64,000 bases of DNA from Escherichia coli (GTDB lineage Bacteria > Pseudomonadota > Gammaproteobacteria > Enterobacterales > Enterobacteriaceae), in NCBI RefSeq assembly GCF_016026235.1, contig NZ_CP065613.1; one strand, given 5' to 3'. Shown here piece after piece: positions 8,210 through 8,227 of this stretch (position 1 is its first letter; the number at the start of each line of letters is the position of its first letter). The notes beneath the pieces are model-generated. The model saw only the letters and a list, made by a program, of their open reading frames with translations, searched no databases and was not told where the DNA came from. Made by a program: the position numbers and the translations under genes.

Positions 8210-8227
8210 GTTATGTTATAACATAAC
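8210..8227. promoter_or_regulatory. Putative Zur box, perfect 18-bp palindrome GTTATGTTATAACATAAC upstream of ykgM-ykgO
   Basis: Perfect palindrome 9-12 bp upstream of ykgM start; resembles gammaproteobacterial Zur operator core; ykgM is a known Zur target. Confidence 0.55.

Follow-up and report, generated by a model that had tools for sequence, protein, structure and literature searches.

The perfect 18-bp palindrome at positions 8210-8227 of this Escherichia coli sequence is the known Zur operator of the ykgM-ykgO operon. Base for base, it is the operator described as L31p in E. coli K-12, and as such it is already known (Panina 2003; PMC4219657). The window, that is, the whole 64-kb stretch of DNA analysed here, reads GTTATGTTATAACATAAC at these positions, a sequence identical to its own reverse complement, and comparison of the upstream regions finds the same 18-mer in K-12. 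The K-12 locus also shares the Shine-Dalgarno sequence, the start codon, the -35 and -10 hexamers and the YkgM protein, but differs at one base adjoining the core on its upstream side (8228, A here and G in K-12) and at a few more positions further upstream of the -35 hexamer.

The complete Zur-operator explanation for 8210-8227, comprising binding of zinc-loaded Zur, repression of the operon and release upon zinc loss, is almost certainly correct, and no result of the analysis speaks against it. Zur binding, its stoichiometry and the dependence of repression on zinc and zur were established in published studies of K-12, whose sequence is identical, and would apply here by that identity. RT-PCR reveals 560-980-fold Zur-dependent repression for L31p together with zinT (Gilston et al., 2014; PMC4219657). 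A ykgM-lacZ fusion is de-repressed about 1000-fold in zur::kan or with TPEN (PMC7297116). In E. coli Nissle, calprotectin induces expression about 2500-fold, and the promoter is now used as a biosensor (PMC10410751).

Several statements of a first-pass annotation of this DNA are borne out. The palindrome is perfect over 18 bp, and its reported distance of 9-12 bp from ykgM corresponds to 9 bp to the first ATG and 12 bp to the second. The identification of ykgM and ykgO as zinc-free paralogues of L31 and L36 agrees with their NCBIfam assignments (NF002462 and NF002021), and induction of the pair under zinc limitation through release of Zur is published for the identical K-12 sequence (PMC4219657, PMC7297116).

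Promoter geometry and the ykgM-ykgO operon

On the minus strand, the region reads TTGAAA tgatccggatgagcatg TATCTT tata GTTATGTTATAACATAAC AGGT aaaa ATG ATG AAG CCC (Table 1). A promoter scan places the sigma-70 promoter of ykgMO at 8260-8232 (TTGAAA-17-TATCTT, minus strand), and the same hexamers at the same spacing are listed for ykgMO in a table of RpoD genomic SELEX results (Shimada et al., 2014; PMC3946193). Two other -10-like elements, TATAGT at 8231-8226 and TGnTATAAC within the box, were rejected as the main promoter, being without a -35 element at 16-18 bp or without the final T; nor are they the elements conserved across species.

Table 1. Features of the ykgM-ykgO locus, in window coordinates.
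Feature	Coordinates	Strand	Basis or remark
-35 hexamer TTGAAA, ykgMO sigma-70 promoter	8255..8260	-	Promoter scan
-10 hexamer TATCTT	8232..8237	-	Promoter scan; last base 4 nt upstream of core
Zur (dimer-of-dimers) footprint, approximate and predicted	8204..8233	.	30 bp centred on dyad 8218/8219
Predicted transcription start zone	8222..8226	-	Usual 6-8 nt spacing after -10; A8224 best guess
Zur operator core	8210..8227	.	Perfect 18-bp inverted repeat GTTATGTTA*TAACATAAC
Shine-Dalgarno AGGT	8206..8209	-	Sequence; directly adjoins operator
ykgM, type B (zinc-free) L31, 87 aa	7935..8198	-	RefSeq of near-identical genomes, NCBIfam NF002462
ykgO, type B L36, 46 aa	7795..7935	-	NCBIfam NF002021
Likely intrinsic terminator of ykgMO	7706..7744	-	15-bp stem, 5-nt loop, then UUUU

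Because the -10 hexamer ends 4 nt before the core, consensus spacing puts the predicted +1 just inside the upstream edge of the operator. The 18-bp core would then span about -3 to +15, covering the discriminator and the predicted start, and the ykgM leader would be about 23-26 nt long, consisting almost wholly of operator sequence and Shine-Dalgarno. A search of the searchable literature found no experimental start site for E. coli ykgM. The core itself stops short of the -10 hexamer by a 4-nt gap. About 30 bp are protected at the L31p, znuABC and zinT operators (Gilston et al., 2014; PMC4219657), and a footprint of that size would cover about -9 to +21, including the 3' end of the -10 hexamer, the discriminator and the start. 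The site position had originally been taken to imply either that the leader is very short or that repression works by occluding the -10 region, and each alternative applies in part. The leader does appear to be very short, with the core covering the predicted start; occlusion does not hold for the core, which begins 4 nt past the -10 hexamer, but would hold for the larger footprint, which would reach it.

The genes downstream of the box are zinc-starvation genes, encoding type B L31 and type B L36. The ykgM product scores 122.9 bits against NF002462 (type B L31; cut-off 86), is 100% identical to K-12 YkgM and contains no cysteine. An open reading frame from the first ATG (8201..7935) would encode 88 amino acids, while the second ATG, at 8198, gives 87 and is the start in both K-12 and the RefSeq annotation of near-identical genomes. 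The first ATG (8199-8201) is not conserved: some E. coli have ATA in its place, and E. albertii has AAA. The second is therefore the real ykgM start, and 12 bp is the relevant distance between operator and gene. The AGG of the Shine-Dalgarno is invariant in the Escherichia rows of the alignment, and a purine-rich GAGG or AGG stands at the same offset in other genera.

The ykgO product scores 91 bits against NF002021 (type B L36; cut-off 70). Its start overlaps the ykgM stop in a TGATG at 7935, and ykgO is translationally coupled behind ykgM. Beyond ykgO, the 103-nt stretch holding the likely terminator hairpin folds at -32.8 kcal/mol (z = -5.1 relative to shuffled sequences), although a simple terminator scan did not flag the hairpin at 7744-7706. 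A second hairpin 3' of ykgO is formed by a perfect 19-nt palindrome, GTCTGATTATTAATCAGAC, at 7748-7766 on the minus strand. An Rfam scan of 7500-9200 returned a folP match of 19.7 bits (gathering threshold 99; E = 0.41) that overlaps the terminator hairpins; it was rejected as probably a chance match.

Upstream of ykgM, the stretch 8228-9136 holds ykgR (8663-8562, minus strand), which encodes a 33-aa small membrane protein. In the SELEX table, the row for ykgM-ykgR includes an entry for H-NS (Shimada et al., 2014; PMC3946193). Beyond ykgR, the gene order departs from that of K-12: an NADH-dependent flavin oxidoreductase gene (10279-9137) is found here where K-12 has the pseudogenes ykgP and eaeH.

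Conservation of the box and its transcribed form

A scan for YkgM with one genome per species yielded 80 loci, from Escherichia, Citrobacter, Kluyvera, Enterobacter, Klebsiella, Salmonella, Serratia, Brenneria, Photorhabdus, Vibrio and Pseudoalteromonas. For each locus, the 150 nt preceding ykgM were scored with a weight matrix built from the K-12 znuC, zinT and pliG sites only, with ykgM left out. All 80 loci, which come from several orders, contain a match of at least 14.8 bits (median 21.2), and in 71 of them the box ends 12-14 nt before the ykgM start codon. All 1,428 control windows, drawn at equal size from these loci, stay below that score, the highest reaching 14.0 bits.

With the 80 loci aligned on the box, positions within it average 1.59 bits of information, against 0.1-0.45 bits in the flanks. 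Secondary peaks fall on a TTG and a TAnnnT that lie 17 nt apart, which is promoter spacing, at offsets matching the -35 and -10 hexamers. A gap of 3-4 nt separates the best sigma-70-like promoter from the box downstream of it in 63 of 81 rows.

Conservation within the box is asymmetric. The promoter-proximal 14 nt, GTTATGTTATAACA, are nearly invariant across Enterobacterales, and the distal 4 nt vary across species (TAAC, AAAC, ATAC, TATT and TATC). This drift leaves few sites fully symmetric: only five of the 80 loci carry a perfect palindrome (two Escherichia, Samsonia and two Brenneria). A closer set, comprising K-12, O157, four more E. coli chosen across the identity range, a divergent E. 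coli and E. albertii, shows substitutions directly flanking the 18-mer on both sides and none inside it.

Among strains of E. coli, the region is present in 5,090 of 5,426 complete genomes. Strain 48 (NZ_CP166879) shares 99.8% identity with this sequence over 7700-9200, and K-12 shares 98% over the region upstream of ykgM. Complete identity over 8190-8265 is found in only 21 of 5,060 E. coli records. The A at 8228 creates the -10-like TATAGT (8231-8226) that overlaps the box, and other lineages differ again at the bases just upstream of the core (TATG, TGTG, TACG and TATT).

These data bear on a reading in which the palindrome acts mainly at the RNA level, as a leader hairpin that tunes translation or stability beside the Shine-Dalgarno or as a terminator of ykgR transcription. 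When fully transcribed, the 18-mer does form a 7-bp hairpin (-6.7 kcal/mol, z = -2.3) ending 1 nt before the AGG. A transcript beginning at the predicted start inside the box, however, would retain a fold of only -2.6 kcal/mol (z = -0.5). The hairpin is not an intrinsic terminator, because no U-run follows it, and no Rfam family matches the region in the scan of 7500-9200. The distal arm changes between species (TAAC to AAAC, ATAC or TATT) without compensating changes in the proximal arm, a pattern of variation that points to recognition by a protein and not to base pairing. The weak fold from the predicted start, the missing U-run and the non-compensatory variation led to rejection of a hairpin, attenuator or terminator, and a mainly RNA-level function is very unlikely.

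Fit to the Zur motif

The Zur-operator explanation is further supported by the fit of the 18-mer to what is known of Zur recognition. Gilston et al. solved the structure of Zur bound to DNA, in which each Zur dimer recognises RNNNYxxxRNNNY (Gilston et al., 2014; PMC4219657). The core at 8210-8227 contains two such dimer sites, overlapping and offset by 5 bp. It fits the structure-derived Zur core RxxxYRxxR*YxxYRxxxY at 8/8 constrained positions (motif from PMC4219657), and, read as G-TTA-T-G-TT-A*T-AA-C-A-TAA-C, it has 9/9 symmetric pairs. The bare skeleton is weak evidence alone, with 213 matches to RxxxYRxxR*YxxYRxxxY in the 64-kb window.

The upstream regions of K-12 znuA/C, zinT and pliG were extracted and their 18-bp cores compared in register with the window ykgM core. 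The comparison with curated Zur operators, proposed in the first-pass annotation, came out at 14/18 identity for each of znuC (GTGATATTATAACATTTC), zinT (GTTACAATATAACATTAC) and pliG (GTTATATTATAACAGTTC). All share the 18-bp purine/pyrimidine skeleton and the core GTnAYnnTATAACAnnnC with the ykgM site, but the three are imperfect, with 6/9 (znuC), 5/9 (zinT) and 5/9 (pliG) symmetric pairs against the 9/9 at ykgM. L31p has been described as the most palindromic of the four E. coli Zur operators, whose repeat-scored rank is L31p > ZinT ~ ZnuC >> PliG (Gilston et al., 2014; PMC4219657). At the znuC and pliG operators, Zur binding is reported to be at least 100-fold weaker and repression only 7-8-fold (Gilston et al., 2014; PMC4219657).

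Scoring of the ykgM site with the matrix is non-circular, because the matrix was built only from the three other operators. The site scores 25.6 bits, the highest value in the 64 kb, by 11 bits. No other Zur box was found in the 64-kb window, where the next best 18-mer reaches 14.3 bits and lies within the ecpR coding region.

An older description of the Zur box, the 23-bp gamma-proteobacterial consensus GAAATGTTATA-N-TATAACATTTC (Panina 2003), shares the ATGTTAT/ATAACAT half-sites with the ykgM site. It has an odd dyad, however, whereas the dyad at ykgM is even. Two registers of the ykgM site, shifted by 5 bp, match this consensus partially, one at 16/22 and the other at 15/22, as expected of two overlapping dimer sites. 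The ykgM site is better described by the 18-bp two-dimer model than by the 23-bp box.

Assignment of the site to another regulator of the Fur family, such as Fur itself, or to an unrelated dimeric regulator is extremely unlikely. The Fur box (19-bp GATAATGATAATCATTATC) does resemble it in general architecture: Fur and Zur belong to the same regulator family, AT-rich inverted repeats are common to Fur-family boxes, and two dimers bind per operator. The two regulators sense different metals, however, and the ykgM site contains no meaningful match to the Fur box. The best match to GATAATGATAATCATTATC in the promoter region is 10/19 and lies off the palindrome, while about 1000 19-mers of the window do as well or better, and the Fur-box reading was rejected on this count. 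The 18-mer also carries the central TATA reported as a mark of Zur rather than Fur sites (Gilston et al., 2014; PMC4219657), it matches each of three other Zur operators as described above, and regulation by zur and zinc is published (PMC4219657, PMC7297116).

Symmetry has no part in the argument for the operator. The window contains four perfect palindromes with arms of at least 9 nt, and 87 of 200 Markov-simulated 64-kb sequences contain at least one, so symmetry alone is not significant. The significance of the 18-mer comes from its sequence, position and conservation together. That it is a functionless chance product of AT-rich intergenic sequence, as these palindrome counts might allow, is vanishingly improbable and is refuted by conservation, seen in the box at a similar offset in every orthologous promoter and in an 18-mer invariant in E. 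coli between variable flanks; moreover, this exact sequence is expected only 0.03 times in the 64-kb window even with up to three mismatches (observed, one).

Two more perfect palindromes occur elsewhere in the window. The longest of all, CTGTAAATATCCTGGCATTAGTAATGCCAGGATATTTACAG (41 nt, 29441-29481), separates ykgG from ykgH and probably forms a terminator hairpin serving the genes on either side. The other, GCACGCTGTACAGGCTGTACAGCGTGC (27 nt, 33555-33581), lies between hyxA and hyxR, a locus found in just 1,879 of the 5,426 complete E. coli genomes.

Repression, a candidate antisense RNA and significance

Under the Zur-operator explanation, two zinc-loaded Zur dimers would occupy the overlapping RNNNYxxxRNNNY elements cooperatively, on opposite faces of the DNA, when zinc is sufficient. 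Because the core begins 4 nt past the -10 hexamer and spans the predicted start, and because the footprint extends over about 30 bp, bound Zur would shut off RNA polymerase, either by excluding it or by blocking open-complex formation, and the operon would be silent. As zinc falls, Zur would leave the DNA, allowing transcription of a leader of about 25 nt in which most of the operator sequence is followed directly by the Shine-Dalgarno AGG. The translationally coupled reading frames would then yield the zinc-free L31 and L36 paralogues. The zur gene itself lies outside the 64-kb window and maps about 4 Mb away in K-12.

We infer a steric mechanism at the ykgM promoter that matches the one at ykgM-rpmJ2 of Yersinia pestis. 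The Y. pestis locus has the same operon, a Zur box just upstream and a footprint overlapping the core promoter, but it belongs to another species and its box differs in sequence (PMC2706843). It was studied by EMSA, DNase footprinting, primer extension and lacZ fusions, and primer extension combined with footprinting put the Zur site over the -10 element (PMC2706843). Repression of Y. pestis ykgM is modest, at 4.7-fold with a plasmid fusion (PMC2706843).

The operator is also overlapped by a candidate cis-antisense RNA. ECS017 measures 92 nt by sequencing and ~275 nt on a Northern blot (Shinhara 2011; PMC3175480, supplement). It maps to 8223-8314 on the plus strand, which puts its 5' end (8223) within the Zur palindrome; from there it extends back over the -10 and -35 hexamers of ykgM. 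The plus strand also carries an extended -10-like TGnTATGTT at 8209-8217. It is conceivable, though unlikely, that the symmetric operator doubles as a start region for antisense transcription. In that case, a single operator would place two opposing transcripts under Zur control, and the antisense RNA or the polymerase making it could contribute to how tightly ykgM is silenced. Because the plus-strand motif needs the distal arm, which is variable outside Escherichia, a role of this kind would be specific to the lineage.

As an operator, the site adds nothing new, being one of the four characterised Zur sites of E. coli. Its thermodynamics have already been examined in the light of the Zur-DNA crystal structure, which was solved on the znuABC operator, and probiotics engineered as calprotectin and zinc biosensors already rely on it for sensing. 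Its use here is as an annotation anchor, since it marks the ykgMO promoter precisely and fixes the ykgM start at the second ATG. The asymmetric conservation of the ykgM Zur box is a small descriptive addition from the comparative data, and this strain has retained the operator in its fully symmetric form, the one of highest affinity.
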